A stretch of DNA of 64,000 nucleotides. Origin: Candidatus Tenderia sp. Its GTDB lineage: Bacteria > Pseudomonadota > Gammaproteobacteria > Tenderiales > Tenderiaceae. Position 1 is the stretch's first letter; the number at the start of each line of letters is the position of its first letter. The stretch covers positions 1-64,000 of the forward strand of contig JANOSY010000088.1 in assembly GCA_031416075.1 (NCBI GenBank), in the 5' to 3' direction. Position numbers and translations under genes: made by a program. The notes beneath the pieces were generated by a model. It made no database searches. It saw nothing but the letters and a program-made list of their open reading frames with translations, and was not told where the DNA came from. This document shows, one piece after another, positions 40,401-64,000 of the stretch.

Positions 40401-40512
40401 TTATATAGATTGAGTAAAAACAGTCGGAACAGCACCCATGTCATCCCCAGCAGTAGAACGCCAGAAACAGATATCCATGACACAGGAAAAACAACCTCAA
40501 GGAGCACTACAC

Positions 40513-40995: not shown

Positions 40996-41212
40996 GCCAA
41001 ACAGACAATGAGGCATTTAAACATGGACCGCAACCCACCCACCAACAGCGCCTGCCGGGCGTTTTGTGACATTAAGATCCTGGCCCGAATCCGCGGATCA
41101 CCGCACTGACGACCACCATTGTTTCAATCTGACACGCAATAGAAGTTATCAGATGGGCGCGCGGGAAGTGCGCCAACCGAATCAGGGAAGATCCAGACAG
41201 GAGATTACGAGG

Positions 41213-42274
41213 ATGAATAAAATACAAACTAACCACAAAAGGCTCAGCATCGGCGTTGCCGGTTTGATGATTATGGCCGCATCACCACACGCCCTGGCGT
41301 TAACCGCCTCCGGCACCAACATCAGCAACAGTGCAACTGTCAATTATAATGTCTCGTCCACCCCACAGACCGCCATCACCAGCAATACTGAAACATTTAT
41401 GGTCGACGCCAAGGTGGATCTGACCGTTGCCGGCACAGGGGGCAATATCAACGTCACCCCCGGCACCACCGCACAGGTGTTGAAATTCACCGTCACCAAT
41501 ACTGGCAACGAGGCGTTTGACTACGCCTTAAGCGCTGTGGCAGGGACCTTGAACTTCACCCCCACCAACGTCGCCATCTACGTGGATGATGGCGATGGTA
41601 TCCGTAATGGCGCTGATACATTGACCAGCACCATCACCAATCTGGCAGCAGGCCTCGGCAAGGTGGTCTTTATCCAGGCCGACATCCCCGCCGGTGCCAC
41701 CAATACCCAGACGGCCAGCTACAACCTGAAGGCAGTGGCTGCCCTGGCCAGTGCGGCCGGGCCCATTCCTGCGGAAGCGGCTAACGTCAAAACCACCAAG
41801 CAGTATGTCTATGCCGACGGTGCTGGCAGTGCCCCAGGGGATGCCACACGGGACAAGACCCACTCCACCAGTCTGACCTACACGGCGGTCACCTCATCCC
41901 TGACCATCAGCAAAGCATCCGCCGTGGTCTGGGATCCGGTCAATCTCGGTGTCAGCCCGCTGCATATCCCCGGCGCAGTGGTGGAATACACCATCACCAT
42001 CAGTAACGGTGCCGGTGGCGCTCAGGCCGATGCCATTGTGCTCACCGATACCCTGGCAGCCAATCTGACCATCCCCCCTACCAGCAATAACTTTGCTGCT
42101 GGCAGGTCGATGCAGATCACCTCACCCAACCTTTACTCGGGTGCGGCAACGGCCCTGACTGACGCCAGTGATGCGGATCAGGGGACGGTGGCCGGGCAGC
42201 TGGTGACCGTCAACGGCATTGTGTTGACGGCCGGACAGTCGGCAACCGTCAAAATCAGGGCTGAAATTCAGTAA
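41213..42274 (+). CDS. Secreted DUF11-domain protein (putative major pilin)
   Basis: Signal peptide ending HALA; mature N-terminus LTASGTNISNSATVNY; C-terminal LTISK...PGAVVEYTITISN...VLTDTL domain. Confidence 0.75.
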   Translation: MNKIQTNHKRLSIGVAGLMIMAASPHALALTASGTNISNSATVNYNVSSTPQTAITSNTETFMVDAKVDLTVAGTGGNINVTPGTTAQVLKFTVTNTGNEAFDYALSAVAGTLNFTPTNVAIYVDDGDGIRNGADTLTSTITNLAAGLGKVVFIQADIPAGATNTQTASYNLKAVAALASAAGPIPAEAANVKTTKQYVYADGAGSAPGDATRDKTHSTSLTYTAVTSSLTISKASAVVWDPVNLGVSPLHIPGAVVEYTITISNGAGGAQADAIVLTDTLAANLTIPPTSNNFAAGRSMQITSPNLYSGAATALTDASDADQGTVAGQLVTVNGIVLTAGQSATVKIRAEIQ

Positions 42275-42279
42275 CGCTG

Positions 42280-48576: not shown

Positions 48577-48595
48577 CAACCGCCACAACATCAAC

Positions 48596-51500
48596 ATGGA
48601 CAGTACGATGAGATACGGACGTTTTATTCAGCTCTGCCTGCTGGCCACCCTGCTGCTGGTGGTACTTTTGCCTCGTCCAGGGGTAGCGGCCATCACCGCC
48701 ACCACCCTATTTGAAGGGTCAACGGATGGCGATGCCAGCGCTTATACTGGACCCTCACTCAGCCCGTCGGCCAACAACCTGATTCTCGTCTGGATAACCA
48801 ATACCCGCTCCTCCTCCCCCACCGTGCCCACCTTTACCGGTAACGGCCTCACCTGGGTGCAGGTCGCCACCGTCACCTGGGGCAGCAGCGGCTCCCCCAC
48901 CGCACGTACCACCCTGTTCCGGGCCATGGGATCCTCCCCCGCTACCGGGATCAACAGCATCGATTTTGCCGGCAATACCCAGACCGGCGTGGCGATGTCA
49001 ATGATCCAGTTCAACAACGTCGACATCACCGGCAGCAACGGTGCCAACGCCCTGGTTCAGAGTGTCACCGGCAGAACTGATAGCGCCTCCTCCACCGCCG
49101 GGCTGAGCCTCACCCTGGCAGCGCTGGGCAATGTTGCCAACGCCTCTGTGGGCGGCTTTTCCAACTTTATCAACTCCGCCACCTCCATCTCCCCAGGGTC
49201 CGGCTACACCGCCTCGTCCGGCACCACCTATCTGGCCCCCAGCATCAGCCTGCGCGCCGAGTGGAAGAGTGCGGGCAGCACCATCGTCAACGTCACACAG
49301 AGCGGTACCTCCCACATTGGCGGGATCGCCGTCGAACTCAAGGCCGACCTCTGTGCCGGCAATGTGGTCACCACCATCGCCAACAGTGGTGATGGCTCCC
49401 TGCGTGAATGTATCATCAAGGCCAACCTCAACCCCGGCACCACCATCACCTTCAACATTACCGCTGCGGCCAACCAATCTTCCGGTGCCAACTCATGGTG
49501 GCGTATCACCCCCACCACCGCGCTACCCACCATCACCGCTGCCAATACGGTGATTGATGCCACCACCCAGACCAGTAATCGTGGCAATACCAATACCCTC
49601 GGCCCGGAAGTTGAACTCAACGGTGCCACCGTCGGTGCCGGGGGGTGGGACGGTTTTGGTGTGGCTTCGCCAGCCACCGGAGTCATCATCCGCGGGTTCA
49701 TCATCAATCAGTGGTCAGGGTCAGGTATCTCACTCTGGAGCGGCAGCGGCACCATCAGGGGCAACTACATCGGTACCAACTACGCCGGTACCAGTGCCCT
49801 GGCCAATACCAGCTACGGCCTCTACCTCAATACCAATGGCAATACCGTCGGTGGCACCAGTGCTGCGGACCGTAACGTCATTGCCGGTAACGGCGGGCCT
49901 GGCATCTACATTGTGAGCAACAGCAATACCGTGCAGGGCAACTACATCGGCGTCAACGCCAGTGCTGGGGCGATAGTTGCCAATAGTGGCCACGGCGTAC
50001 AGATACTCTCCGGTGCCACCGGCAATACCATTGGGGGCACAGCGGCGGGGGCAGGCAATGTGATTGCTGGCAACGGCGCTGATGGCATCAACCATAGTTC
50101 AACAGGCAGCAATACCGTACAAGGCAACTACATCGGTACCAACGCCAGCAGCGCGACACTCTCTAATGGTGGCAATGGCATTGCCATCTCTGCCGGCACA
50201 CTCAATGTGGGCAACGCCTCTGAATCCCAATCAAACATTATTGGCCCCAACAGTGGTGCGGGCATCAACCTGGCGGGCGGAACAGTGAATCTGGCAGGCA
50301 GTGTCACCGTGCGTGGCAACATGGCCCTGGCCAGCGGCACACTCGCCATGGGCAGCGCCACACTCAACCTCTCCGGTAACTGGAGCCGTACCAGCACCAC
50401 CGTCACAACCGGCACCTCCACCGTGGTGCTCAACGGCACTGCCCTGCAGAGCCTGACCATGAACGGCAGTAACTTCAATAATCTGACCATCACCAACGGC
50501 AGTGTTGCAGGTATCAGTTTTAATGATGGTTTTAACGCCGCCAACATCACCAATACCACCCCCGCCTCCCGGCTGACCTTTAAGGCGGGCGCAACCTACA
50601 CCCTCTCCGGCACCCTGACACTGGTCGGCAGCAGTGGCAACCAGATCATTCTGCTCAGCGACTCCCCCGGCACCCGCTTTACCCTGAACCCAACTGCTGG
50701 CGCGCAGAGTGTCAACTATGTCAACGTCAAGGATTCACAGGCCTCAACCAACAACATCACCGCCGATAACTCCACCAACAGTGGTGGCAATGATGATGCC
50801 GAGGCCGCACCACGCTGGGTCTTTAATGCCCCCGATACCACGCCGCCCGCCAGGATCATCGACCTGACGGTCACCTCCTCCACCACCTCATCCATCACCC
50901 TGAACTGGACTTCACCGGGAGATGACAATAACAGTGGCACGGCTACCAGCTATGACCTGCGTTACTCCACCTCGCCCATCACGGCGGGCAACTGGGCCAG
51001 CGCCACACAGGCCGTTGGCGAACCAACACCCTTGGTGGCCGGTAGCAGCCAATCATTTAGCGTGACCGGCCTGGCCGCTGCCACCACCTACTACTTTGTA
51101 ATGACCACCAGCGATGAGGTCCCCAATACCTCCGCCCTATCTGACTCAGCGGTTGGCACCACCGGCGGCGGTGGTGGCGGCAATGTGAGCTACTACGCCA
51201 AACGCAGTAACAGTGTCTCCATCGCCTCCGGCATCACCAGCAACAGCGGCTCCTGCGGCACAGATCCAACCGCCTACTACATTGAAGAGCTGTCAAAAAA
51301 CATCAGCGACATGTGTGTCACAGCAAATGCCTACCGCTGGGAGCAGTTGACGGCCGGCAGCTACTCGGACCACTACTTCAACACCGCCTATGTGGCCAAT
51401 ACCACCGTTACCGGCGTCTCTTATCAGGTCACCATCCGCGACAGCGGAACAGTAGGTTTCCAGCTTTTTTATGTCACCTCCGGCGGTACCAAAACCTATC

Positions 51501-54214
51501 TTGGCACTGAAGTCACCCAGGTAAACAGTGGCATAGAAACCAATAACTACATCCTTAACCTCTCCGGCCAGTCTGGCACCATCCCCACCGGGGCAAAACT
51601 TGGGTTTCGTACCCGTGGTATCTCTGTCAGCCCCAGCTTCAGGATCTATGTGGGTAATCTGGATGGCAGGACACCCAGCAACCTCTCCGGTCATCTAATC
51701 GTCAACGAGGCCGTGGGCAGCAGCGATACCACCGCCCCGGCCAGTGTCACGCTCTCTACCGGTACCATCACCAACAACTCCGTGCTGCTGAACTGGGTAT
51801 CACCGGGGGATGATGGCAATACCGGCACCGCCCAGATCTACGACATCCGTTACTCCACCGCCGCCATCACGGCGGGCAACTGGGCCAGCGCCACCCAGGT
51901 AGGCGGGGAACCAACACCTCTGGTGGCGGGCACTGCCCAGACCTATACCGTGACCGGGCTGGCCCCCAATACCCTCTACTACTTTGCCATCAAAACCGGC
52001 GACGAGACACCCAACTGGTCAGCGGTCTCCAACTCCCCCAGCGCCACCACCTACGATCCACCGGTGGGTGGCTTTAGTGTCGATAATGTGATCCCCGCCA
52101 CCCAGATCAGCCAGTCCACCAACGGTTCAGGCATCATCACCATCAACTGGAAGGGGCGCGACAATCAGGCCAATAACGTCACACTCAAAACCTTTCAGTA
52201 CAGCGTGGACGGTGGGGCTAGCTGGAACGCCCCCACCAACGGCGACGCCTCCGCCGCACTCTCCGCCACCTGGAGCAACAACGGCGGCAGTGGCTGGACC
52301 ACCGCCACCACCTTGGCTGCCGCTCCTGTCAACAGCTTCACCTTCAATACCAAACATGCCAATGTCTCGGGGTTAAACGGGGTGGACCAGAACGATGTAC
52401 GGGTCCGGTTTCTATTACGTGATGCCACTATGGATAGCCAGAGCTATGTCACCTCGACCGATTTTCGTATCGATGCCCTTGCCCCTACCGCGACCATTGG
52501 CAGCGCCATTTACGATGCTGCCAACGACCTGCTGACCATCACCGGCACCAACTTCACCACCATTGCGGCGGCCAGCACCGACATCAAAGCCTATGTCGAC
52601 TGGAGCAAATTTGTCTGGGACATCAACGGCGACAACGCCACCACCACCGACATCAGCTTTGTGCTGGGTGACATCACCAGCCTGATCATCACCGACGATA
52701 CCACCATCACCCTGCAGTTCAGTGCCGCCAAAGGGATCGCCATCGAAGCCACCGCCGGCTACAGCACCACAGGCGGGGTCGACACCCTCGATGTTGCCGC
52801 CGGTTTTGCCCGAGACGACTACGGCAATGCCGCCACCACCGATGCGGTGGCCAACGGGCCACTCGTTACCACCTCGGTCTCAGGGATACTCTACGATACC
52901 GACCGCACCACCAGCCTCGGTTTTGGCATGACGGTACGGCTACTCATCAACGGCGCCAGCATGGGCTCCACCACCACCGACGGCAGTGGTCGCTATACCT
53001 TCTGGAATAACGTCAGTGCCGGCAATGCCATTCTGGTCTACATCGACAATGGTGCCAGCACCGCCATCAGCGCCACCGTTACCGCCAACGCCAGCCTCTC
53101 GGACTTTGATCTCTACGCCAGCCATCTGGTGGCCCGCCACGATAATGGGGGCGCACTCAGCAACGCCAACCTGGGAAGTGCCAAGGGGGCGTATGTCGAC
53201 ACCGATATTGTTTACTCCGTCACCGGCAGCGCGTTAACCGTCAGTGGCAGCGCCACCCGGCTACACATCCCGGCGGGCAAAAGTTTTACCCCGGAGGGCA
53301 ACGTCACCACCCCGGCCATGAGTAATCTTGGCACCTTTGTCGGCGGCAGTGGTGCCATTACCATCAATGGCAACCTGAGTAACAGCGGCAGTTATACCGC
53401 CAGCAGCGCCACCACCACTGTTGCTGCTGACTTCAGCAACAGCGGTACCTTTACAGCCGCAGGCGGTACCGTGCTGCTTAACGGTATCAATCAAAACATC
53501 ACGGGGACCACTACCTTCTTCAACCTGACCAAAACCGTGGCCACCGCCGACACCCTATTTTTCAGCGTCGGCTCCACCACCACCGTCACGGGTAGCGCCA
53601 CCCTGCAGGGGGCATCGGGCCAGCCACTGAGTCTGCTCTCGATCACCCCCGGCAGCCGCTGGAACTTCAACATCGGCAGCAGCGCCACTAAGTCCTTCAG
53701 TTTTCTGAATGTGATCGACAGTGACGCCTCAGGCTCTGCCGCTGCCAAAAAACCGCTCATCGCCCAACCCAGCAACTCTACCGACAGCGGCAACAATGTG
53801 GACTGGTTTGGCCTGCCCTCCATCTCGGTGATCAAATCCAGTACCCTGATATCCGACCCCGTTAACGGCACCACCAGCCCGCTGCATATCCCGGGGGCAA
53901 TCCTTAACTATCAGATCCTCACCACCAACTCTGGCAACGGCTCACCCGATACCAATACCGTGGTGGTAACCGATGCACTGGACTCCAGCAAGCTTGAGTT
54001 TGATGTCACCACCGGCATCACCTTTACCGCCAATACCTCGGGACTGACACTGGGCACAGTGAGTTATGCCCATACCGCCACCCCCACCACCTATACCTAC
54101 ACCCCCACCGGCCCCTACGACGCCAATGTGGCGGGCATCAAGATCACCACCAGCGGTACGTTTGCCAGCGCCGGTGCCAGCTTTACCCTCAACTTCCGCG
54201 TCCGCATAAAATAG
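48596..54214 (+). CDS. Large secreted adhesin (beta-helix repeats, two FN3-like domains, C-terminal DUF11-like domain)
   Basis: Signal peptide; T/S/G/N-rich; repeated N.(I/V).GNYIG; two L.W.SPGDD...YD.RYS...VTGL...T.YYF domains; C-terminal ISVIK...DPVN...PLHIPGA.L.Y. Confidence 0.8.
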   Translation: MDSTMRYGRFIQLCLLATLLLVVLLPRPGVAAITATTLFEGSTDGDASAYTGPSLSPSANNLILVWITNTRSSSPTVPTFTGNGLTWVQVATVTWGSSGSPTARTTLFRAMGSSPATGINSIDFAGNTQTGVAMSMIQFNNVDITGSNGANALVQSVTGRTDSASSTAGLSLTLAALGNVANASVGGFSNFINSATSISPGSGYTASSGTTYLAPSISLRAEWKSAGSTIVNVTQSGTSHIGGIAVELKADLCAGNVVTTIANSGDGSLRECIIKANLNPGTTITFNITAAANQSSGANSWWRITPTTALPTITAANTVIDATTQTSNRGNTNTLGPEVELNGATVGAGGWDGFGVASPATGVIIRGFIINQWSGSGISLWSGSGTIRGNYIGTNYAGTSALANTSYGLYLNTNGNTVGGTSAADRNVIAGNGGPGIYIVSNSNTVQGNYIGVNASAGAIVANSGHGVQILSGATGNTIGGTAAGAGNVIAGNGADGINHSSTGSNTVQGNYIGTNASSATLSNGGNGIAISAGTLNVGNASESQSNIIGPNSGAGINLAGGTVNLAGSVTVRGNMALASGTLAMGSATLNLSGNWSRTSTTVTTGTSTVVLNGTALQSLTMNGSNFNNLTITNGSVAGISFNDGFNAANITNTTPASRLTFKAGATYTLSGTLTLVGSSGNQIILLSDSPGTRFTLNPTAGAQSVNYVNVKDSQASTNNITADNSTNSGGNDDAEAAPRWVFNAPDTTPPARIIDLTVTSSTTSSITLNWTSPGDDNNSGTATSYDLRYSTSPITAGNWASATQAVGEPTPLVAGSSQSFSVTGLAAATTYYFVMTTSDEVPNTSALSDSAVGTTGGGGGGNVSYYAKRSNSVSIASGITSNSGSCGTDPTAYYIEELSKNISDMCVTANAYRWEQLTAGSYSDHYFNTAYVANTTVTGVSYQVTIRDSGTVGFQLFYVTSGGTKTYLGTEVTQVNSGIETNNYILNLSGQSGTIPTGAKLGFRTRGISVSPSFRIYVGNLDGRTPSNLSGHLIVNEAVGSSDTTAPASVTLSTGTITNNSVLLNWVSPGDDGNTGTAQIYDIRYSTAAITAGNWASATQVGGEPTPLVAGTAQTYTVTGLAPNTLYYFAIKTGDETPNWSAVSNSPSATTYDPPVGGFSVDNVIPATQISQSTNGSGIITINWKGRDNQANNVTLKTFQYSVDGGASWNAPTNGDASAALSATWSNNGGSGWTTATTLAAAPVNSFTFNTKHANVSGLNGVDQNDVRVRFLLRDATMDSQSYVTSTDFRIDALAPTATIGSAIYDAANDLLTITGTNFTTIAAASTDIKAYVDWSKFVWDINGDNATTTDISFVLGDITSLIITDDTTITLQFSAAKGIAIEATAGYSTTGGVDTLDVAAGFARDDYGNAATTDAVANGPLVTTSVSGILYDTDRTTSLGFGMTVRLLINGASMGSTTTDGSGRYTFWNNVSAGNAILVYIDNGASTAISATVTANASLSDFDLYASHLVARHDNGGALSNANLGSAKGAYVDTDIVYSVTGSALTVSGSATRLHIPAGKSFTPEGNVTTPAMSNLGTFVGGSGAITINGNLSNSGSYTASSATTTVAADFSNSGTFTAAGGTVLLNGINQNITGTTTFFNLTKTVATADTLFFSVGSTTTVTGSATLQGASGQPLSLLSITPGSRWNFNIGSSATKSFSFLNVIDSDASGSAAAKKPLIAQPSNSTDSGNNVDWFGLPSISVIKSSTLISDPVNGTTSPLHIPGAILNYQILTTNSGNGSPDTNTVVVTDALDSSKLEFDVTTGITFTANTSGLTLGTVSYAHTATPTTYTYTPTGPYDANVAGIKITTSGTFASAGASFTLNFRVRIK
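50834..52036 (+). repeat. Duplicated FN3-like module within the adhesin (about 50834-51148 and 51725-52036)
   Basis: Near-identical peptide ITAGNWASATQ..GEPTPLVAG and an identical 31-nt DNA run in both copies. Confidence 0.85.
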
Positions 54215-54302: not shown

Positions 54303-55664
54303 ATGAACCATGAGATCAAACTGCCGGAACGTGATGTGCTCACCGTCTCCCGCCTGGTGCGTGAAACACGCGCCGTGCTGGAGGGAAGTTTTCCGCTGCT
54401 CTGGCTGGAGGGCGAGATCTCCAACTACTCGCGCCCCGCCTCCGGCCACCTGTACTTCTCCTTGAAGGATGAGGCGGCGCAGGTGCGTTGTGCCATGTTC
54501 CGCACCCGCAACCTGCAACTCCGTTTTGCCCCCACCAACGGCATGCAGGTGATGGTACGGGCGCGTATCACTATGTATGAACCACGCGGCGAGTTTCAGA
54601 TTGTAGTGGAGCAGATGGAAGAGGGCGGCCTGGGTCTGCTGCAACGCAACTTCGAGGCACTGAAAACCCGTCTCGGTCAGGAGGGGCTGTTCGACACCGC
54701 CCACAAAAGGCCACTGCCGACGATGCCGCAACGGCTGGGGGTAATCACCTCCGCCACCGGGGCCGCCATTCGCGACATCATCAGCGTGCTGAAACGGCGC
54801 TATCCGGCGCTGCCGGTGCTGATCTACCCCGTACCGGTGCAGGGCGAGTCAGCGGGTCGTGAGATCGCGGCGGCAATCAAACTCGCCAACCAACGCAAGG
54901 AGTGCGATGTGCTGATCGTCGGCCGCGGCGGCGGCTCGCTGGAGGATCTCTGGGCCTTTAATGAAGAGGTGGTGGCACGGGCTATCTACACCAGCGCCAT
55001 CCCCATCATCTCCGCCGTCGGCCATGAGGTTGACTTCACTATCGCCGACTTTGTGGCCGACCTACGCGCCGCTACCCCTTCCGCCGCCGCTGAACTGGTA
55101 ACGCCGGATATGGCTGAGCTGAAACAGCGCCTGATGCAACAACAGCAACGTCTGCACAATCGCATCCGCGCCACACTGCAACAGTCACAACAACGGCTCA
55201 GCTGGTTAAGCAAACGGCTACAACAACAACACCCAGGGCAACAGCTCCAGCAAAAAGGACAAAGACTTGATGAGTTGGAGCAACGTCTGTTGCAGGGCAT
55301 CAACATGCAGCTGCGGCATCGGGGCCACCAGCTCCAGCAACTCACCACACGCCTACACCACAACTCACCACGCCACCGTCTGCAACAGCTAAAAACTCAC
55401 CATAAACAGCTACAACAGCGGCTCCACCGCGCCTGGCAGTCAACGCTGAACAACAAAAAACAGCAGCTCGCCGCCACCAGCCGCGCGCTCAACAACATCA
55501 GTCCGCTGGCAACACTGGAGCGGGGTTATGCCATCGTGCAACAGCTGCCTAAACGGCAAGTAGTTCGTGATGCAACGGTGATGCAGCCGGGTGATAAAAT
55601 TCAGGCTCGCTTGTCCAAAGGGGTGTTGCTCTGCACCGTTGATGAAATTAAACAAGAGGTTTAA
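54303..55664 (+). CDS. xseA: Exodeoxyribonuclease VII large subunit
   Basis: GEISN...SGHLYFSLKD, RGGGSLEDLWAFN, AVGHEVD, TPSAAAE, SPLATLERGY. Confidence 0.96.
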   Translation: MNHEIKLPERDVLTVSRLVRETRAVLEGSFPLLWLEGEISNYSRPASGHLYFSLKDEAAQVRCAMFRTRNLQLRFAPTNGMQVMVRARITMYEPRGEFQIVVEQMEEGGLGLLQRNFEALKTRLGQEGLFDTAHKRPLPTMPQRLGVITSATGAAIRDIISVLKRRYPALPVLIYPVPVQGESAGREIAAAIKLANQRKECDVLIVGRGGGSLEDLWAFNEEVVARAIYTSAIPIISAVGHEVDFTIADFVADLRAATPSAAAELVTPDMAELKQRLMQQQQRLHNRIRATLQQSQQRLSWLSKRLQQQHPGQQLQQKGQRLDELEQRLLQGINMQLRHRGHQLQQLTTRLHHNSPRHRLQQLKTHHKQLQQRLHRAWQSTLNNKKQQLAATSRALNNISPLATLERGYAIVQQLPKRQVVRDATVMQPGDKIQARLSKGVLLCTVDEIKQEV

Positions 55665-56523
55665 TCCGTTGTTATCTACCTACAAAAATCTAGCCATACT
55701 GGCATTGGCACTGCTCTTTTCACACGGCAGCTTGGCCGTCGAACTTCCATTGCAGCAGCTTGTGCCAGGCGGCGTTGCTCTATTACCCATCGCCAATGCC
55801 ACAGACAAACAGCCACAAGCCGAATACAACGGCAAACCGGTGATGGTGATCAACAGTCAGGGGCGGTGGTATGCAGTGGTGGGCATCCCACTTGATGCTG
55901 CCATCGGGCAACAACAGATCACCGTGACGCTGGCCGACGGCAGCGATGTCACCCAGACGTTCACCGTCAGCGACAAGGCTTACGAGACCCAGCGCCTCAT
56001 CATTGCAGACAAACGCAAGGTCGAGCCCAACGAGGAGGAGATGCAACGCATCACTCAGGAGAAGGTGGAGACGGACAAGGCGCTGGCCCACTGGGGCGAT
56101 GCACTGCTGACCGACAACCTGCAACTCGACCTACCGGTAGAGGGGCGGCTCAGCAGCGCCTTCGGCCTGCGCCGCTTTTTTAATGACCAACCACGCGCAC
56201 CCCACAGCGGTCTCGACATTGCCGCACCAGAGGGAACACCAATCAAGGCCCCTGCCAACGGTCGTGTAATTTTGAGCGGTGATTTCTTTTTTAACGGCAA
56301 TGGCATCTACATCGACCACGGCCAGGGATTAGTCACCATGTACTGCCACATGAGCCGCATCGACGTAAAAGAGGGGCAAGAACTAAAGCGGGGCGAAATC
56401 ATCGGCGCGGTGGGCATGACCGGCCGCGCCACCGGGCCACACCTGCACTGGGGGGTTAGCCTCAACGACGCACGGGTCAACCCATCACTATTTGTACCCG
56501 CACTGATGAACAGAGTCCCATAA
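55642..56523 (+). CDS. M23 family metallopeptidase
   Basis: HSGLDIA, HG.GL.T.Y.H, GRATGPHLHW; signal peptide; start approximate. Confidence 0.9.
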   Translation: MKLNKRFNPLLSTYKNLAILALALLFSHGSLAVELPLQQLVPGGVALLPIANATDKQPQAEYNGKPVMVINSQGRWYAVVGIPLDAAIGQQQITVTLADGSDVTQTFTVSDKAYETQRLIIADKRKVEPNEEEMQRITQEKVETDKALAHWGDALLTDNLQLDLPVEGRLSSAFGLRRFFNDQPRAPHSGLDIAAPEGTPIKAPANGRVILSGDFFFNGNGIYIDHGQGLVTMYCHMSRIDVKEGQELKRGEIIGAVGMTGRATGPHLHWGVSLNDARVNPSLFVPALMNRVP

Positions 56524-56561: not shown

Positions 56562-56948
56562 ATGAACAAGATTATTGCCACGGCTGTACTACTCATCATC
56601 CTTACGGGCTGCAGCCAAATGCCCACCACCACACATACCGGTGGCCAGATCAACCACGTTGTGCTGATCTGGCTCAAAGATGCCGGAAACCCAGAGCAGC
56701 GTCACCAGATTATCGAAGCAACCCGCACACTGGAACAGCTACCTGGCATTATCTCTGTGCATGTTGGCGCGGTCATACCCAGTGACCGCAAAGTTGTGGA
56801 TGATAGCTTTGACATCGGCGTGCATATGCTCTTCAGCGACCGTCAGAGCATGGAACATTATGGTAACCATCCCGAACATCAACGCATTCTCAACCAGATT
56901 GTCATGCCACTGACAGAGCGCATACTCATTTATGACTTTGCACAATGA
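56562..56948 (+). CDS. Dabb-family (stress-responsive A/B barrel) lipoprotein
   Basis: Lipobox LTGC; INHVVLIWLK, Y..HPEH, IYDF; AAGGAGG RBS. Confidence 0.8.
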   Translation: MNKIIATAVLLIILTGCSQMPTTTHTGGQINHVVLIWLKDAGNPEQRHQIIEATRTLEQLPGIISVHVGAVIPSDRKVVDDSFDIGVHMLFSDRQSMEHYGNHPEHQRILNQIVMPLTERILIYDFAQ

Positions 56949-57507
56949 TCTGACAAACCCCCATCACCATAGTAACAATATCAACAACATGCCCTCCGCT
57001 TGTTACCGTTAATAGTTAATATAAAAACCACTTTAAAATATGGCTTTTATAATTAATGAGTATTTCAAACCACTACGACAAATAAAATAAATTTTATAAA
57101 TCATAAATACCGCAAAACAATTACCCATCACACCTGTGAAACCTCACTCAAATACCTTTATTTAACACCTGTTTTTTTCAATTAAAACAAGAACATTAAT
57201 GCACTTTTATTGTTTATTTATAACGCTAAAACAACATAAATAACCATATTAAAAAAGACTTTATTAATACCCATATATGAAAAAAATATCACTCAACACA
57301 AACTCAATATGTTTAGCACAAAATAACTTAATGAAAATTTAAGTTTTACGGTGTAGGATAAATTTCACCCTCAGCGACATAACCAGTTATTTCTTGGAAT
57401 GTTGCACTCTCGGGATCACGAGAAGAGCAGAGGGGGGAGTACTGATATTTGAATGGTTCAAATATTAGAGGACTATGATTTAAATCACATTTACTAAGGA
57501 GATTATT

Positions 57508-57630
57508 ATGGGTGGCGGCGGCGGTATGGGCGGTGGCGGTATGGGCGGTGGCGGCGGCGGTGGTATGGGCGGCGGCGGCGGTGGCGGCATGGGCGGCGGT
57601 GGCGGCGGTGGCGGTGGCGGCGGTATGTAG
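57508..57630 (+). CDS. 40-aa peptide composed only of Gly and Met (M-G5-M-G4-M-G7-M-G7-M-G11-M)
   Basis: TAAGGAG RBS 6 nt upstream; all six ATGs in frame; ends ATG-TAG; followed by a terminator. Confidence 0.65.
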   Translation: MGGGGGMGGGGMGGGGGGGMGGGGGGGMGGGGGGGGGGGM

Positions 57631-57707
57631 CTCCCGGCTCACTATGCACCCTCTCTCTCATGTGAGGGGCTCATAGCACAGTTGTAATGGCATATTGCCA
57701 TGCGATG

Positions 57708-57740
57708 AAATGGGGGGGCATTATGTCCCCCTATTTTTTA
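57708..57740 (+). terminator. Intrinsic terminator of Gly/Met unit 1
   Basis: GGGGGGCA-TTA-TGTCCCCC followed by TATTTTTT. Confidence 0.75.
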
Positions 57741-58042
57741 TGCCAAAAAACAACACCTACCCCCTATCCTCGCCCTCCATATCCCGTGTGCTCAATAGCT
57801 TAATTACACACAAAAAATAAATCATTTTTCCTGTGCGGAATATATTTTCTATTTCCCAACAAATTTAAGGGAAGGTTAACATACCCGATGTAGTATCGAT
57901 AACACCTTAAACGTTGTGCCTGCTTTTTGGCTTAACGACTTCTCTGAAACTATGACGAGATAATAAGGCAGTACCGGTCTTTGAGTTATCAACGACCCAA
58001 TATAAATATCAATTACTTTTAAATAAAACTAAGGAGTTAATC

Positions 58043-58111
58043 ATGGGTGGAATGAACGGTGGTCGTGGTGGTATGGGTGGCGGCGGTGGCGGTGGTGGCG
58101 GCGGCATGTAA
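58043..58111 (+). CDS. 22-aa Gly/Met-rich peptide MGGMNGGRGGM-G10-M
   Basis: Same ACTAAGGAG RBS as unit 1; ends ATG-TAA; followed by a terminator. Confidence 0.65.
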   Translation: MGGMNGGRGGMGGGGGGGGGGM

Positions 58112-58184
58112 TATGCCCGCGTCACGCACTCCCTCTCACTATTGAGAGGCATGTTGCGTACCGCTATGGCTAACGCCATACAAT

Positions 58185-58219
58185 AAAAATGGGAGGGCAT
58201 GTCTGCCTCCCATTTTTTT
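58185..58219. terminator. Bidirectional terminator (Gly/Met unit 2 and ABC exporter)
   Basis: AAAAATGGGAGGGCA-TGTC-TGCCTCCCATTTTTTT. Confidence 0.8.
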
Positions 58220-58303
58220 CGTCAATAATTCCCTGGCCTACGCCATTACTCGATACTCAAATAACCCACCGCCTTACCCTTCATCTCTCAAAAATTTCTT
58301 TTA

Positions 58304-60079
58304 TTATGCCTCGTTATCAGACTGCCACAGCACTGAAACCTTATATTCTGGATGGGATATATAGAGTTCATCATGTGTACCTACTGTAATTGAGCCATTG
58401 CCATTAAAATAGAAGACTCTGTCGGCATTGCGAATAGACGAATAACGATGGGCGATAACAAAAGTCGTGCGACCTGTACGTAATGTATCCAGGGCAGCCA
58501 CTACCTCTTTCTCTGATTGGCTATCCAATGCTGAAGTTGCCTCATCCATAATTAAAAATGGAGCATCCATTAACATCGCCTGTGCAATTGCAATACGTTG
58601 ATACTGTCCACCTGATAGCTCAACACCGCCGGATCCTACGCGAGTATCAAGCCCATCACTCAACGCTGTAATAAATTGCCATGCGCCACTCACTTCACAG
58701 GCGTGTACCATCTGCGACTCAGTGGCATCCGGCTTCACTAATAGTAAGTTGGTGCGAATCGTATCGTGCATGATGAACGGGGTTTGCCAAATGATTGAGA
58801 ATTGCTCACGTAATGAGGCGATAGTTACAGTGCGAATATCCACCCCATCAATTGTAATACGGCCTTGCTGAGGGTCATGAAAACGCATCAGCAGCCGGGC
58901 AAGTGTTGATTTTCCAGCACCGCTTGCTCCAACCAGGGCGACTGTTTCTCCGGCGCGCACTTCAAGATTGACACCTTGTAAGAGCAGCTCCCCTCCCGTG
59001 TAGGCAAAATCTACACTCTCAAAACGAATACCTCCCTCAGTCACAACTAATGGCTCTGCATCAACAATATCCTGGGTCTCAGGTTTTAGATCAAATATCG
59101 CCAAAACACGCTGCGCAGCCCCAAAATCACCTTGTAACTGCATTGGTGCTTGTGCAAACCCACGCACCGGCACCGAGAGATACCCCAAGTAGAGTAGGAA
59201 ACTGACCATCGCCCCTATACCAAAACCGTGACTCTCTATCCGATCGATCCCGACGAACACTATCACGATCCCACAAAAATAGATCATGGCCGCCAGTGTG
59301 ACCGTGAACCCTTGGTCCAACCAGCGCATCTTCATGCCCCAGTAACGTGCCTGTTCGTAACACTCACCATGCCTAGCCGCCATGCGTGTCTCGCCCCGGA
59401 CTGAGCTTATGCCACGCAGATTGCTTAAGACCTGTTCTTCAAAGGCTAATAGTTTGCCCGCTTCATGAAAAAATCGTTGCGATGCCTTACGCTTGCGCGG
59501 GCCGAATAACCCCTGATGTATGACAAACAGTGGCACAAACATTAACGCCACCAGGGCCATATACCAATCGATCCAAAACAACATGCCACAATAAAAAAAT
59601 AGGGTTAACAGGTGAGAAACAAGAAAGAAGGGGACTTCGAGTACCATGTTCTGCACACTGTCCACATCACTGCTAAGGCGGGCAAGCACGTCCCCCTTCT
59701 GTAGATGTGCAGCACCGGGCGCAGAGACATCAAACAGATGACGCAGGGCAGCTTGACGCAGCCGCCCCACAAAACGAAGCCCCAACCAGTTAGCCATCAG
59801 GGTGGAGGAGAAGTGAAATCCCTGGTTGATGACAACAACCAGTATCAACCAGAGCAGCACCGATTTAACCTGATCAAAACGCCCGGCCTGTAAGTGGTCA
59901 AACGGTAACCCTATCAGCCAGACCATGGCGGTATTGGTCACGGTTAACCCTACAATAGTCCCTATGACCAAACTGACAAACACCACATCGGCACGTGCGT
60001 ATGGCAAAAAATGGCGGAAGACTTGCCAGAATTGGGACCTTTGCACGACAGTTTCGCCCTGCTGAGGGGTATCACTCAT
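58304..60079 (-). CDS. ABC exporter, fused TMD-NBD (MsbA-like, no C39 domain)
   Basis: About six TM helices, GASGAGKS, LSGGQYQR, IMDEATSALD, IAHR; ATGA-coupled to the upstream gene. Confidence 0.9.
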   Translation of the reverse strand: MSDTPQQGETVVQRSQFWQVFRHFLPYARADVVFVSLVIGTIVGLTVTNTAMVWLIGLPFDHLQAGRFDQVKSVLLWLILVVVINQGFHFSSTLMANWLGLRFVGRLRQAALRHLFDVSAPGAAHLQKGDVLARLSSDVDSVQNMVLEVPFFLVSHLLTLFFYCGMLFWIDWYMALVALMFVPLFVIHQGLFGPRKRKASQRFFHEAGKLLAFEEQVLSNLRGISSVRGETRMAARHGECYEQARYWGMKMRWLDQGFTVTLAAMIYFCGIVIVFVGIDRIESHGFGIGAMVSFLLYLGYLSVPVRGFAQAPMQLQGDFGAAQRVLAIFDLKPETQDIVDAEPLVVTEGGIRFESVDFAYTGGELLLQGVNLEVRAGETVALVGASGAGKSTLARLLMRFHDPQQGRITIDGVDIRTVTIASLREQFSIIWQTPFIMHDTIRTNLLLVKPDATESQMVHACEVSGAWQFITALSDGLDTRVGSGGVELSGGQYQRIAIAQAMLMDAPFLIMDEATSALDSQSEKEVVAALDTLRTGRTTFVIAHRYSSIRNADRVFYFNGNGSITVGTHDELYISHPEYKVSVLWQSDNEA

Positions 60080-62094
60080 ATGTGTGAATCAGTAAAACAG
60101 CGCGCCGTTTTGTTGATAAACAGGTCGTACAGAATCTGCACCGTCAGGATCGAAAACAGCACCCACTCCTGCCTCATTGCCCGGTAATAGGCATTGCCAT
60201 CAGGGGGTGTGGGCAGGTTCACCAACTCATCCAACAGCGCAGTCACCACTTGAGGATTAAAGATGCCCGCCTGTTGAATCTTCTCTTCAGAGAGAAATTG
60301 CGACAACCGGTCTGCATTTTTTGGCGTAAAAAACCATTCACGAATAGGGGTGTAAAAGGCACGTTTTTTATACGAAGTGGGATGTTCTGGTAACTTTGGC
60401 AACATTAACTTACGCAAAATATACTTCTCATCCAGGCCATTCAGCTTGAGTGCTGGTGGCACCTTTGCCGCTAACTCCACCAGTTTGTGATCCAGAAATG
60501 GGACCCGCGCCTCCACACCGTTAGCCATGGCCAGTCGATCTGCCCGCCACAATATCCAACCTGGCAGACGGGTCTTTATCTCCAGATACAGGGACTGGTT
60601 GAGTGGATGCAACCCTTCCAGCCTGGGCTTTAAGGTGGTGATCAACTCTGCCATCTGCTGATCGTGGTCGGCGGACTGCTCCAGAAAATCATCGCTGAAG
60701 ATCCCTTCACTCCCTTCACGAAGGATTTGCCAGAAGTCATACCAGACGGGATAACAACCAAATTGCGCCACCACCTTCTGCTGCTGCTGCGACTCATGTA
60801 AACGAGCCAGCATCTGCAGATAATCAGGGGCAAAATCATTGCCAAAATCATCTAAATAGTAACGCAGCCGCTCCTCCTGCCCCCCCTTCTCATTACCCCA
60901 CTGACGGATGTAATCCTGGCGGAAGCAGTCATACCCCCCCAATATTTCATCTGCACCTTCACCGGTATACACCACTTTAAACTGATTTTTACGCACCAGC
61001 TCCGACAACATCAGCAGCGGGATATCCAGCGCCATACGTTGTGGCTGCTCGACGCTGTACATCGCCTCCACCAACACATCCAGATAATCATCACTGCGCT
61101 GGTCATCCATATACAGGTCATGCAGCTCAACACCGATGTGGTCGGCAATACTGCTAGTAATTGGATACTCGTCATTAGCACTATTGGAAAAGCGGATAGT
61201 AAATGCCTTTACACTCTGCTCCGCAGACTGCTGCAACCAATAGGTGGTAGTGGCCGAGTCAACACCGCCGGAAAGATAGGAGCCAATAGGTACCTCGCCA
61301 ATCATGTGTGAGCGCACAGCGTCCTGCAAAACACCATCAAACTCTGCCAACCACTGCTCTTCACTGCGATCCTCATACTCACCCTCTCGGGGAAACTCCA
61401 GATCCCAATAACAGTCAATTTGCGGCTGCTTACCTGCCACCAGTGTCATGGTATGGCCGGGGGCCAACTCAACCACCCCGGCAAAGAGCGTATGTGGCGC
61501 AATATTAAATTGATAGGAGAAAAAATTCCGTACCGATTGGGGATTAAAGGCGGGAGTGATCTGCCCCGATGCAAACAGCGATTTCACTTCTGAGGCACCA
61601 TACAGGGTCGTGCCGTCCCAATGGTAAACCAGCGGTTTGATACCCAACCGGTCCCTGGCCACAAATAGTTCGTTAGTTAATGAGTCATGAATAGCAAACG
61701 CAAACATTCCCCGCAGGCGCGGCACACACTGCGCGCCATCGCGCTGGAACAGATGGAGAATCACCTCCGTATCCGATTGCGTCTGAAACAGAACGCCCTC
61801 CTGCTCCAGTTCAGCCCGCAACACCTTGTAATTATAGATTTCACCGTTATAAACAATGGCATAACGATCATCAATGCTTAACATCGGCTGGGCACCGCCA
61901 CGAATATCAACGATACTCAAACGGGTATGGCCTAACGCCACACCACCACGCACCAAATGGTTCTGTGCATCGGGTCCCCGATGTATCAGCGCATGCACCA
62001 TGCGCCCTATTATTAATTCACTCGACTCACTCTGCGCCAACGGCTCAGCGGATTGATGATGGCCAGCACGATAGATGAAACAGATCCCACACAT
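60076..62094 (-). CDS. Asparagine synthetase B-like glutamine amidotransferase
   Basis: MCGI (Cys nucleophile), HRGPD, HTRLSIVD, YNGEIYN, LSGGVDS, GEGADE..GGY, EARVPFLD. Confidence 0.9.
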   Translation of the reverse strand: MCGICFIYRAGHHQSAEPLAQSESSELIIGRMVHALIHRGPDAQNHLVRGGVALGHTRLSIVDIRGGAQPMLSIDDRYAIVYNGEIYNYKVLRAELEQEGVLFQTQSDTEVILHLFQRDGAQCVPRLRGMFAFAIHDSLTNELFVARDRLGIKPLVYHWDGTTLYGASEVKSLFASGQITPAFNPQSVRNFFSYQFNIAPHTLFAGVVELAPGHTMTLVAGKQPQIDCYWDLEFPREGEYEDRSEEQWLAEFDGVLQDAVRSHMIGEVPIGSYLSGGVDSATTTYWLQQSAEQSVKAFTIRFSNSANDEYPITSSIADHIGVELHDLYMDDQRSDDYLDVLVEAMYSVEQPQRMALDIPLLMLSELVRKNQFKVVYTGEGADEILGGYDCFRQDYIRQWGNEKGGQEERLRYYLDDFGNDFAPDYLQMLARLHESQQQQKVVAQFGCYPVWYDFWQILREGSEGIFSDDFLEQSADHDQQMAELITTLKPRLEGLHPLNQSLYLEIKTRLPGWILWRADRLAMANGVEARVPFLDHKLVELAAKVPPALKLNGLDEKYILRKLMLPKLPEHPTSYKKRAFYTPIREWFFTPKNADRLSQFLSEEKIQQAGIFNPQVVTALLDELVNLPTPPDGNAYYRAMRQEWVLFSILTVQILYDLFINKTARCFTDSHI

Positions 62095-62166
62095 CACAGA
62101 CTCTCACGTAAACAATCCCTGCACACAACGCCGGTCAGCAACAACCGGAACCCGCCTGATACCATA

Positions 62167-62192
62167 AAAAAAGGGGCCAATGGCCCCTTTCT
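62167..62192 (-). terminator. Intrinsic terminator after pnp
   Basis: GGGGCCA-T-TGGCCCC inverted repeat followed by a T7 tract on the minus strand. Confidence 0.8.
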
Positions 62193-62218
62193 TATATCAA
62201 ACCCACGTTAAGAGGTAC

Positions 62219-64000
62219 TTAAACCTCTTCCGTGACGGCCTTGATGCTTAAACGGATACGACCCTGCTTATCCACCTCAAGCACTTTAACCTTAACCACT
62301 TCACCTTCGGTAAGCTTATCAGCCACATTCTCCACACGCTCATTGGAAATCTGTGAGATGTGAACCAAGCCATCCTTGCCCGGAAGGATGGTGACAAAAG
62401 CACCAAAGTCCATCAACTTGGCCACTTTACCATCGTAAATCTTGCCGACCTCAACATCAGCAACCAACTCAAGAATCCGCTGCTTCGCCGCCTCACCCGC
62501 CGCCCGGTCAACCGAGGCGACCTTAACGGTGCCATCATCATCCAGATCAATCGATGTGCCTGTCTCTTCGGTCAGTGCACGAATAGTTGCGCCCCCTTTA
62601 CCAATAACATCGCGGATACGGTCCGGATTAATCTTGAAGGTGATAATCCGTGGTGCATATTCAGACAACTCTTCACGAGGTGCAGTGATCGCTTTATCCA
62701 TTTCACCCAGAATAAACAGACGGCCATCTTTTGCCTGAGAGAGTGCTGCCTGCATGATCTCACGGGTAATCCCGTCAATCTTGATATCCATCTGCAACGC
62801 AGTGATACCTGATGACGTACCGGCGACCTTAAAGTCCATATCACCCAGATGATCTTCATCACCCAGAATATCGCTCAACACGGCAAAACGGTCACCCTCT
62901 TTAATCAGCCCCATCGCAATACCCGCTACCGGCGCTTTTAAAGGGATACCCGCATCCATCATCGCCAAACTACTGCCACAGACAGAGGCCATTGAACTGG
63001 AGCCGTTGGATTCAGTAATCTCAGAGACCACACGAACAACGTAAGGGTAGTTTGCCATATCAGGCATCACCGCTTGAACACCACGTTTGGCCAGACGGCC
63101 ATGGCCGATCTCACGACGTTTAGGGCTACCCACCATGCCGGTTTCACCAACACTGTAAGGGGGGAAGTTGTAGTGGAACATAAACGGGTCTTTACGCTCA
63201 CCTTCGATGGCATCGATCATCTGCGCATCTTTGCCAGTACCGAGGGTGGTCACCACCAGCGCCTGTGTTTCACCACGGGTAAAGAGTGCTGAACCATGTG
63301 TACGTGGCAACACACCCACACGAATGGTGATCGGACGAACAGTTTTGGTATCACGTCCATCGATACGCGGCTGACCATCAATAACACGGCCACGCACCAC
63401 CTTGCTCTCAAGCACGCCAATCATCTCACCTACGTCAGCCGCGCTCCACTCAGGTGTCTCACCACCACACAACGTAGTAACCGCCTGACTGCGAATATCA
63501 TCCAGCGCCGCATACCGATCCTGCTTTACCTTAATCTGATAGGCTTCGTTCAACTGTGTCGCAACAACACCGCTCACCGCGGACTCCAGCGCGCTGTTCT
63601 TGACAGGCGACTGCCACACCCAAGCCTCAACACCCACTTCATCGCACAGCTCACGAATAGCCTTGATCACAACACACATCTGTTCATGACCAAACATCAC
63701 CGAATCCAACATCACCTGTTCTGACAGCTCATGGGCTTCAGACTCCACCATCAATACCGCACCCTCAGTACCGGCAACCACCAGATCCAACTGCGAGGCC
63801 ACCAGCTGAGACTTGCTCGGATTCAGCAAAAACTCACCATCGACATAACCAACACGGGCAGCACCGATCGGTCCCTTGAAAGGAACACCTGCCAGCATCA
63901 ATGCCGCTGAAGCACCGATCAGCGAGGGAATATCAGGATCAATTTCAGCATCCAGTGAGACAACGGTGGCAACAATCTGGACTTCATTAGTGAAGCCGTC
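62219..64000 (-). CDS. pnp: Polyribonucleotide nucleotidyltransferase (5' end outside window)
   Basis: [45 protein letters not shown] and S1 domains; frame open to the window edge. Confidence 0.97.

Follow-up and report, generated by a model that had tools for sequence, protein, structure and literature searches.

The window analysed here is a 64,000-nt stretch of Candidatus Tenderia sp. (assembly GCA_031416075.1, contig JANOSY010000088.1, positions 1 to 64,000), and all coordinates refer to it. Two tiny open reading frames lie in tandem on its forward strand. Micro-ORF 1 (57508-57630, +) encodes a 40-aa peptide of 34 Gly and 6 Met, M G5 M G4 M G7 M G7 M G11 M, and stops with TAG. Micro-ORF 2 (58043-58111, +) encodes a 22-aa peptide, MGGMNGGRGGM G10 M, and stops with TAA.

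Both ORFs have ACTAAGGAG with AGGAG 6 nt before the ATG, and both begin with ATGGGTGG. Their Gly codons are all GGC or GGT, apart from one GGA in unit 2. The GC content is 0.75–0.78 over ORF 1 and 0.63 over ORF 2, against 0.20–0.30 in the upstream spacer. Thus, the original prediction of two Gly/Met micro-ORFs at this place is confirmed. It missed, however, that the two units are paralogous over about 380 nt covering promoter, leader, ORF, three 3′ hairpins and terminator.

Each unit starts with a PmrA-type direct-repeat box followed after 10 nt by a −10 hexamer. In unit 1, they are CTTAAT-N5-TTTAAG (57327-57343, +) and TAGGAT (57354-57359, +), and in unit 2, TTTAAG-N5-GTTAAC (57864-57880, +) and TAGTAT (57891-57896, +). 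The 5′ leader of unit 1 (57364-57507, +) is about 144 nt long with AAGGAG at 57496-57501, and that of unit 2 (57901-58042, +) has AGGAG at 58032-58036, unpaired in the centroid fold. The leaders are 118–161 nt long in all 10 units compared. RNAalifold on a MAFFT alignment of seven leaders gave no consensus structure, although possible hairpins were seen there by eye.

The 3′ UTR of unit 1 (57631-57742, +) forms three predicted hairpins, the last being the terminator. That of unit 2 (58112-58220, +) is likewise structured and ends in a terminator, and its conserved post-stop TATGCC pairs with the last codons, leaving the stop in the loop. The terminator-like hairpins with a T-run are at 57712-57741 and 58195-58217. 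Each unit ends there with no gene behind it, so the originally listed role of a Gly-tRNA-sensing leader is unlikely.

Convergent with the micro-ORFs is an ABC exporter gene (58304-60079, −) for a fused permease-ATPase of 591 aa. An AsnB-like glutamine amidotransferase gene (60076-62097, −) forms an operon with it. Upstream of this AsnB-ABC operon (62191-62223, −) are a PmrA-type box TTTAAG-N5-CTTAAC, N10 and TATAAG, overlapping the stop and terminator of pnp. The same arrangement is kept in G001 (L029:466), where G followed by a number denotes a genome in our comparison. The other neighbours, an M23 peptidase and a Dabb lipoprotein, are not conserved ones.

The micro-ORFs escape the usual annotation. 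None of 10 such peptides was found by exact look-up among 15 billion predicted proteins, so gene callers never report them. Neither peptide matched any family in Pfam-A or NCBIfam at E ≤ 0.01. A word-seeded homology search with the 40-aa peptide scored 8000 candidates and found none at E ≤ 10, probably because of composition filtering, which may hide relatives, and the ESM Atlas gave no usable hit. In the whole 3.49-Mb genome, a scan for Met-started Gly/Met-rich reading-frame ends gave only four hits, namely the two units, a GroEL-type tail and the tail of a secreted protein.

Homologous units occur in all 4 other genomes of the genus, in a sister genus with Gly/Met/Arg peptides, in at least 2 further gammaproteobacterial families and in metagenomes. 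The orthologue of ORF 1 in G001 is 43 aa long and in frame, and orthologues of ORF 2 are in G001, G003 (partial) and G004. The SD, ATG, frame and stop are kept in 10 of 10 complete units in the family or a close relative, in 3 more beside distant exporter orthologues and in 8 of the 80 metagenome loci listed. Every complete homologous unit keeps the in-frame ATG interruptions and a stop directly after the repeat. The N and R of unit 2 are kept in a species whose unit is about 73% identical at the DNA level.

The codon usage also bears on coding. Across 18 such ORFs, the Gly codons are GGC 203, GGT 177, GGA 40 and GGG 0 out of 420, whereas six ordinary window genes use GGG for 93 of 515 Gly codons. 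Third positions vary while first and second positions do not, and only ATG interrupts the repeat in unit 1 and its orthologue. In the sister genus, Arg is encoded by AGA, CGC and CGT, which argues for selection on the amino acid rather than on a DNA repeat. The antisense frames across the repeat are open, as expected for (NCC)n, but of inconsistent length.

The units could instead be non-functional GGN microsatellites that happen to be open. Slippage does occur, but only in frame, as lengths differ between species and one assembly of the same population carries an in-frame 15-nt insertion. Assemblies also break in the repeats, at a contig end in G003 and with NN in G059. Trinucleotide slippage preserves frame by itself, so the frame conservation alone is weak evidence. 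However, the whole unit from box to terminator is conserved across genera at 69–75% DNA identity or less, and the units co-occur with two unlinked protein families. This reading is therefore strongly disfavoured.

Alternatively, the functional product could be the RNA, a two-component-regulated small RNA of about 350 nt whose 3′ hairpins and post-stop single strand act on targets or bind a chaperone. The ORF would then be incidental or only tune RNA stability, making a dual-function RNA at most. The 3′ UTR is the best-conserved part at the nucleotide level, and of its 32 consensus pairs, 10 show compensatory changes among 8 units, so the RNA may have a role of its own. The hairpin ATGGC-loop-GCCAT and the terminator are kept even in the sister genus, and the unit 2 transcript folds better than shuffles (z = −3.5). 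The pairing of the terminal Gly-Met codons with the post-stop sequence could explain part of the conserved C-terminal Met.

Nonetheless, an RNA-only function appears unlikely. A scan of 56900-58400 against Rfam 15 at E ≤ 10 gave six hits, all far below threshold, the best with E = 0.17 and 22.6 bits against a gathering score of 70. The SD, ATG and stop are kept also across families in which the UTRs are no longer alignable, in addition to the GGG avoidance and the varied Arg codons. Moreover, secreted proteins that appear co-regulated carry the same Gly/Met sequence as a tail, which points to the peptide as the shared functional moiety.

The box, N10 and −10 are present in 10 of 10 units examined in the family, and the direct repeat reads YTTAAK-N5-NTTAAK. 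Its half-sites match the Salmonella PmrA box, CTTAAG-N5-XTTAAT (PMC3973317). A strict scan of the genome for box, N10 and −10 gave 5 matches against 0 in the reversed control. Four of the five are the two units, the gene for the Gly/Met-tailed secreted protein, which lies next to the regulator's orthologue, and the promoter of the paralogous RR-HK operon. With a relaxed −10, the box is also upstream of AsnB-ABC in G000 and G001, and between the exporter and the tailed-protein gene in G008.

The candidate regulator is QseB/PmrA-like. In G008 and G013, its gene lies directly upstream of the micro-ORF. The G008 regulator scores 256.7 bits for QseB (NCBIfam cut-off 345) and 254.8 bits for PmrA (cut-off 330), and the G000 orthologue is 63% identical to it. 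The idea that all micro-ORFs have a PmrA-type box was rejected, as it was found at 4 of 9 loci in a wider scan and at none of the 3 beside distant exporter orthologues. Against a thioether metal buffer under such control, the PmrA-type systems of enterobacteria respond to Fe3+, Al3+ and acid, and thioethers do not bind those hard ions.

The secreted protein sharing the box has a Sec signal peptide and carries Gly/Met sequence as loops and a tail. Its AlphaFold2 model is beta-rich with a pLDDT of 73.7, and a Foldseek search of the PDB gave no match at E ≤ 0.001.

The original prediction proposed testing co-occurrence with the AsnB-like and ABC genes, and this came out strongly positive. The exporter orthologue occurs in 7 of 17 family genomes, exactly the 7 with micro-ORFs. 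In a 400-genome class sample, 9 genomes hold the orthologue, of which six have an adjacent Gly/Met micro-ORF, one has a Gly/Met/Arg/His-tailed subtilase beside it and two are cut by contig ends. Among 400 other genomes of the phylum sample, none has it. A scan of genome contigs with the exporter found only one true relative, in a MAG labelled Gammaproteobacteria.

The adjacency of peptide and exporter survives changes of orientation and of all other neighbours across at least 4 families, and in one metagenome contig the peptide gene sits upstream on the same strand instead of convergent. On the other hand, six metagenome micro-ORFs have no exporter in the DNA assembled around them, three of these loci being 7.6–9.9 kb.

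The amidotransferase orthologue occurs in 7 of the 400 class genomes, all among the 9 exporter-positive ones, and in 5 of those it lies on a different contig from the exporter. The idea that it is always adjacent was rejected, as it is adjacent only in this genus, and the neighbours of the unlinked genes are not conserved. It was not found in G008 (100% complete), and G013 has only 35%-identical paralogues. Their peptides carry Arg and end in Arg instead of Met.

The exporter has only the ABC_membrane and ABC_tran domains, with no peptidase domain, accessory protein or adjacent membrane-fusion gene, and resembles lipid and drug exporters as much as peptide exporters. It is not MsbA, since it scores 354.6–354.9 bits against the TIGR02203 cut-off of 602, while a separate gene on another contig (C17) scores 745. 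The amidotransferase has an intact MCGI N-terminus. It scores 436 bits for the general asparagine synthase model TIGR01536 (cut-off 267), and almost as well, 429 bits, for the XrtA/PEP-CTERM-associated amidotransferase model.

These features leave room for the peptide staying in the cell or acting on the exporter itself, as its regulator or plug or as a free mimic of the GroEL Gly-Met tail. The exporter and amidotransferase would then handle another substrate, for example an envelope lipid or polysaccharide, in a PmrA-like envelope-remodelling regulon. PmrA regulons classically modify LPS, and in one genome the exporter orthologue lies directly downstream of groEL. However, the peptide is not hydrophobic, unlike the small-protein regulators of transporters known so far. 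The proteins with the same sequence have Sec signal peptides, so the motif would work outside the cytoplasm. With the retained adjacency to the exporter as well, we regard this alternative as unlikely.

Leaderless microcin-like antimicrobials, exported by an ABC transporter that would also give immunity, are still less likely. The combination of a small Gly-rich peptide, an ABC exporter and an AsnB-like enzyme superficially resembles microcin J25 and other microcin loci, and copy number and sequence vary rapidly between species. However, there is no double-glycine leader, C39 peptidase domain, accessory or immunity gene, or B-type protease/RRE, and the models of peptidase-containing exporters score far below their cut-offs. 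A chain of two residue types offers little for target recognition. The system is chromosomal, sharing an envelope-type two-component box with a housekeeping-like secreted protein.

We favour, with a probability of roughly 0.45, the reading that the units are monocistronic small genes of a four-part system, consisting of a two-component regulator, the peptides, a dedicated ABC exporter and an AsnB-type amidotransferase. In this view, the regulator box replaces the −35 element and each unit gives an mRNA of about 340–390 nt, translated from a strong SD into a leaderless peptide. On an envelope or metal signal, the regulator would switch on the set, including the Sec-secreted protein. The amidotransferase would convert the peptide's only carboxylate, the C-terminal Met, into an amide, and the exporter would move the peptide to the periplasm. 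There, its flexible thioether-rich chain would buffer soft metal ions (Cu+/Ag+) or oxidants.

The gene anatomy, the conservation, the shared box and the co-occurrence are established here by sequence analysis, whereas transcription, translation, regulator binding, amidation, export and metal or oxidant chemistry are all inferred. The original interpretation is therefore partly supported. Its core claim, selection on a translated peptide rather than a free-running microsatellite, is well supported by the comparative data. Among the roles it listed, the Cu/Ag or oxidant scavenger and a minimal RiPP-like peptide fit best but remain hypothetical. The metal hints are only the MGGM (MXXM) spacing, one exporter-linked variant reading MGGHGGGMGHG-(AP)n-GGHGGGM, and two metagenome micro-ORFs beside MbnB-type and DUF2063 genes, as in the copper-chelating bufferin clusters (PMC11626156).

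In its fullest form, which we consider possible but rather unlikely, this would be a minimalist ribosomal natural product, written in only two amino acids, C-terminally amidated, pumped out under PmrA-like control and serving as a periplasmic thioether sponge or metallophore together with the secreted proteins. That would be a new class of gene-encoded metal or oxidant buffer and the simplest RiPP-like pathway known. If the peptides are made and exported, functional bacterial peptides can be built from two residue types, and the origin of the GroEL-like Gly-Met motif could be studied outside chaperonins. A compact system would also be available for studying leaderless peptide export and peptide C-terminal amidation.

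The micro-ORFs are conserved, appear specifically regulated and are tied to two protein families whose phylogenetic profiles nest almost perfectly. This work also defines a putative regulon and a new secreted protein family in an uncultured freshwater-sediment gammaproteobacterial lineage. No described family matches the system. Full-text literature searches, not extending to subscription journals and supplements, found Gly-Met repeats only as chaperonin tails and no free-standing bacterial Gly/Met peptide.

Among known systems, the lasso peptide clusters such as McjABCD of microcin J25 have a small precursor gene transcribed against an operon with an AsnB-homologous enzyme and an ABC exporter. 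However, the peptides here have no leader and no Asp or Glu, which lasso precursors have at core position 7–9 for the isopeptide bond. No B protease/RRE gene neighbours the amidotransferase, as Pfam finds no transglutaminase-like or PqqD domain there. The lasso cyclase model NF033535 gives only a partial hit of 200.1 bits against a cut-off of 525, and the enzyme keeps the catalytic MCGI N-terminus of true glutamine amidotransferases.

AsnO of the N-acetylglutaminylglutamine amide pathway is an AsnB-family enzyme that amidates a peptide's C-terminal carboxylate, and is the chemical precedent for the proposed step. Its substrate is a non-ribosomal dipeptide, its model TIGR03104 scores 352 bits here against a cut-off of 570, and no Ngg-type ligase lies nearby. 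In the PmrA regulon, a PmrA box drives the very small ORF of PmrR, and the box sequence and spacing here match the Salmonella consensus. PmrR is a hydrophobic membrane peptide, and the regulator here is only QseB/PmrA-like, below the curated cut-offs.

Bufferins and methanobactins are gene-encoded peptides that chelate copper (PMC11626156). They need MNIO-type modification of Cys residues and have leaders or signal peptides, whereas the window has no such enzyme and the micro-peptides have no Cys, with one exception in G004. SilE/PcoE-type metal sponges are intrinsically disordered, Met-containing periplasmic proteins (PMC5008109) and serve as the model for how the peptide may work. They are induced by OmpR-family two-component systems. 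SilE is much larger, rich in His and acidic residues and Sec-secreted, while the micro-peptides have no signal peptide, no His in this genus and no sequence similarity to SilE.

The C-terminal (GGM)n tail of GroEL has the same two-residue composition, ends in Met and is reported to be flexible and polyproline-II-like (PMC12571646). That tail is the last ~13 residues of a 57-kDa cytoplasmic chaperonin. Here, the sequence is a free-standing predicted gene product with its own putative promoter, linked to an exporter and an amidotransferase and sharing its promoter box with secreted proteins.

The two micro-ORFs held up as they had been described. Unit 1 (57508-57630, + strand) translates to M G5 M G4 M G7 M G7 M G11 M, 40 residues with 34 Gly and 6 Met, with a TAG stop. 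Unit 2 (58043-58111, + strand) translates to MGGMNGGRGGM G10 M, 22 residues, with a TAA stop. Both have ACTAAGGAG with AGGAG 6 nt before the ATG, use only GGC/GGT for Gly apart from one GGA, and are followed by terminator-like hairpins. GC reaches 0.75-0.78 over ORF 1 against 0.20-0.30 upstream. The two units are paralogues over about 380 nt, flanks included.

A scan of the whole 3.49-Mb genome for Met-started Gly/Met-rich frame ends found four, namely these two, a GroEL-type tail and the tail of a secreted protein on contig C37. Another protein class with a Gly/Met segment was seen in a 378-aa reading frame at 1225-2361 of a further contig, L017 (G018:C9), whose N-terminal part reads ...GMGGGGGGMGGGMGGGMGGGC.

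Upstream on the + strand lie xseA, an M23 peptidase and a Dabb-domain lipoprotein. The M23-family peptidase (55591-56523, +), of the family that includes glycyl-glycine endopeptidases, is two genes upstream of the poly-Gly peptides, but this neighbourhood is not kept in two other genomes of the genus (G002 and G004) and is probably coincidence. A run of very large surface-type proteins (40438-54214, +; 2098 and 1872 aa) with DUF11, OmpA, CarboxypepD_reg, fn3 and purple-acid-phosphatase N-terminal domains appears unrelated. The sequencing runs with this stretch are labelled freshwater sediment metagenomes.

Convergent on the - strand lie an ABC exporter (58304-60079), an AsnB-like amidotransferase (60076-62097) and pnp. 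The exporter is MsbA-like but below every curated cut-off, while the genome's true MsbA is elsewhere (745 bits). Its nearest solved bacterial relatives are Sav1866 and MsbA. The amidotransferase passes the general asparagine synthase model (436 bits against a cut-off of 267) and begins MCGI, the catalytic N-terminus of glutamine amidotransferases. The only named close relative is a MAG labelled Gammaproteobacteria.

All four other genomes of the genus have homologous units convergent with the exporter-amidotransferase pair. G001 has both units, M G6 M G4 M G6 M G5 M G5 M G10 M and MGGMNGGRGGMGGGGMGGGGGGGM. G004 has one, MGGMNGGMGGMGGRGCGGGGM, and G002 has two, MGGMGGGGGGMGGGGGMGGGGGMGGGGGM and MPVVIAPPIIPAPPAPAPGGMGMGGMGMGGMGGMGGGGMGM, whereas G003 is cut by a contig end inside the repeat. 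The left-hand neighbours differ between genomes, but the exporter side does not.

Beyond the genus, the unit of a sister genus (G008 and G013) and a related metagenome contig (L189) encodes Gly/Met/Arg peptides that end in Arg, and is again convergent with an exporter that is 69-71% identical. In a genome of another family (G059) a pure Gly/Met ORF is convergent with a 50%-identical exporter. A metagenome pattern scan found at least 120 stretches, of which 80 were listed as loci, and eight of those 80 are stand-alone Gly/Met(/Arg) micro-ORFs of 26-46 aa. One of the eight (L163) lies upstream of a 46%-identical exporter on the same strand. One of 31 viral-contig hits is a stand-alone 32-aa ORF. 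This ORF, MGGMGGGGMGGGMGGMGAGGMGGGMGGGMGGM, at 381-479 of L100, a 51-kb contig filed as viral, has an SD and neighbours matching only PHROGs of unknown function, a GTP-binding domain and a pyrophosphatase.

The original prediction read the units as selection on a translated peptide and not as microsatellite slippage, and this interpretation is partly supported. Frame conservation alone is weak evidence for a trinucleotide repeat, but several features go beyond it. The SD, the ATG and a stop placed directly after the repeat are kept in every complete unit, including lineages whose flanks no longer align. The only interruptions in unit 1 and its orthologue are in-frame ATGs, and the N and R of unit 2 are kept in G001, whose unit is about 73% identical. 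Third positions are mixed while first and second positions are intact, so the repeat is not homogenised.

Across 18 micro-ORFs, the Gly codons are GGC 203, GGT 177, GGA 40 and GGG 0, while six ordinary genes of the window use GGG for 93 of 515 Gly codons. In the sister genus, Arg is written as AGA, CGC and CGT. Slippage still occurs in frame, as lengths differ between species and one public assembly of what may be the source population carries an in-frame 15-nt insertion (Gly-Gly-Met-Gly-Gly) in unit 1 at position 57519. Short-read assemblies break inside both repeats. Translation, inferred here from sequence alone, appears very likely.

A role for the RNA itself cannot be excluded. Eight 3′ UTRs from the genus fold into three hairpins, with 10 of 32 pairs showing compensatory changes, and the second hairpin and the terminator persist in the sister genus. 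The unit 2 transcript folds better than shuffles (z = -3.5), its SD is unpaired in the centroid fold, and its last codons pair with the conserved post-stop TATGCC, leaving the stop in the loop. No Rfam family matches, and the leader alignment gave no consensus structure.

Every unit in the family (10 of 10) carries a direct repeat YTTAAK-N5-NTTAAK exactly 10 nt upstream of a -10 hexamer. The Salmonella PmrA box is given as CTTAAG, five base pairs, XTTAAT (PMC3973317). A strict scan of the genome finds five such promoters and none in the reversed control. Two are those of the micro-ORF units, one lies upstream of the gene for the secreted protein with Gly/Met loops and tail, and one lies upstream of a paralogous regulator-kinase operon. 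The fifth, upstream of an aspartokinase-like gene, may be chance.

With a relaxed -10, the box also precedes the amidotransferase-exporter operon in this genome and in G001. The candidate promoter (62191-62223, -) overlaps the stop codon and terminator of pnp, and by inference a transcript started there would lack the 5′ half of that hairpin. The arrangement is kept in G001. The box also lies between the exporter and the tailed-protein gene in G008. Among more distant micro-ORFs, boxes lie upstream of 4 of 9, against a background of 0.155 per kb, and upstream of none of three others. The regulator's best NCBIfam matches are QseB and PmrA, both below cut-off.

Within the family, the exporter orthologue (E <= 1e-150) occurs in 7 of 17 genomes, exactly the seven with micro-ORFs found by pattern. 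In an even sample of the class, 9 of 400 genomes hold an orthologue (E <= 1e-130), and six of those nine have a stand-alone Gly/Met micro-ORF beside it. Related genomes are not independent, but at least five families are involved in the co-occurrence. Two of the nine are cut by contig ends within about 300 nt. None of 400 other genomes of a phylum-wide sample holds the orthologue.

The remaining one of the nine (G291; contig C91, locus L252) has the exporter directly downstream of a subtilase with Big_2 domains and a Gly/Met/Arg/His tail, whose C-terminus is ...GHGHRRGGMMGGGMMGGR. In G322 (contig C128, locus L253) the exporter orthologue lies directly downstream of groEL, which has its own GGM tail. 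Among the six with a micro-ORF, G267 has two exporter paralogues, each with its own peptide. At 3329-3520 of contig C29 (locus L259, minus strand) the second of them is convergent with a 55-aa ORF, MGGHGGGMGHG-(AP)n-GGHGGGM, a His-bearing variant with an Ala-Pro spacer that is reminiscent of the Pro/Ala-rich N-terminus of the second peptide in G002.

The amidotransferase orthologue (E <= 1e-200) occurs in 7 of the same 400 class genomes. All seven are among the nine exporter-positive ones, and in five it lies on a different contig. It was not found in G008 (100% complete) or in the genome G156, and G013 has only 35%-identical paralogues. G008 and G013 are the genomes whose peptides contain Arg and end in Arg.

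The secreted partner (contig C37, 5533-6507, locus L235, outside the window) is a protein of about 324 aa with a signal peptide and a PmrA-type box upstream of its gene. Divergent from it is a QseB/PmrA-like regulator gene, the orthologue (63% identity) of the response regulator that flanks the micro-ORF in G008. The protein belongs to a family of about 60 clusters, all unnamed and without Pfam domains, and has three Gly/Met-rich segments next to conserved cysteines. The C-terminal tails of 45 aligned members end in Met in 33 and in Arg in 8, mirroring the two kinds of free peptide. The predicted model is beta-rich with disordered Gly/Met parts and has no significant PDB match.

Taken together, that these are real, conserved and regulated small genes has a probability of about 0.9, and their functional coupling to the exporter and amidotransferase appears likely. 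The anatomy, the conservation, the shared box and the co-occurrence were observed directly, whereas the following steps of the mechanism are inferred. A QseB/PmrA-like system would activate the set and the peptide would be translated, its initiator Met probably being removed before Gly by the standard rules. The amidotransferase would then amidate the peptide's only carboxylate, that of the C-terminal Met, a step that remains tentative, although AsnO of the NAGGN pathway is an AsnB-family precedent. The exporter would move the peptide to the periplasm, where the Sec-secreted partner would display the same sequence, and this export is about as likely as not.

The most speculative part is the role as a thioether buffer for Cu(I)/Ag(I) or oxidants, which is tentative and rests on four hints. 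MGGM has the MXXM spacing of Mets motifs. The His-bearing variant of G267 would begin, after Met removal, with Gly-Gly-His, the classic ATCUN site (PMC7701195). Two micro-ORFs lie beside bufferin-type genes (PMC11626156), and SilE offers an analogy (PMC5008109). Against the role, PmrA-type sensors classically respond to hard ions and acid, and metal binding here is a conjecture from sequence.

The two bufferin-like loci are metagenome contigs (L120:5001-5084 and L123:4391-4480), in which stand-alone 27- and 29-aa Gly/Met ORFs lie downstream of ferrochelatase. In L120 the ORF is convergent with MbnB-type (DUF692) and DUF2063 genes, as in bufferin clusters, and no ABC exporter lies within the 7.6-8.4 kb examined, while the L123 neighbours were judged by synteny only.

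The peptides match no Pfam, NCBIfam or Rfam model and are absent from predicted proteomes, and the literature searched showed Gly-Met repeats only in chaperonins. Hence, we regard the system as new in kind, although its function is a proposal. By the features tested, it is not a lasso, microcin, bufferin or known sRNA system.
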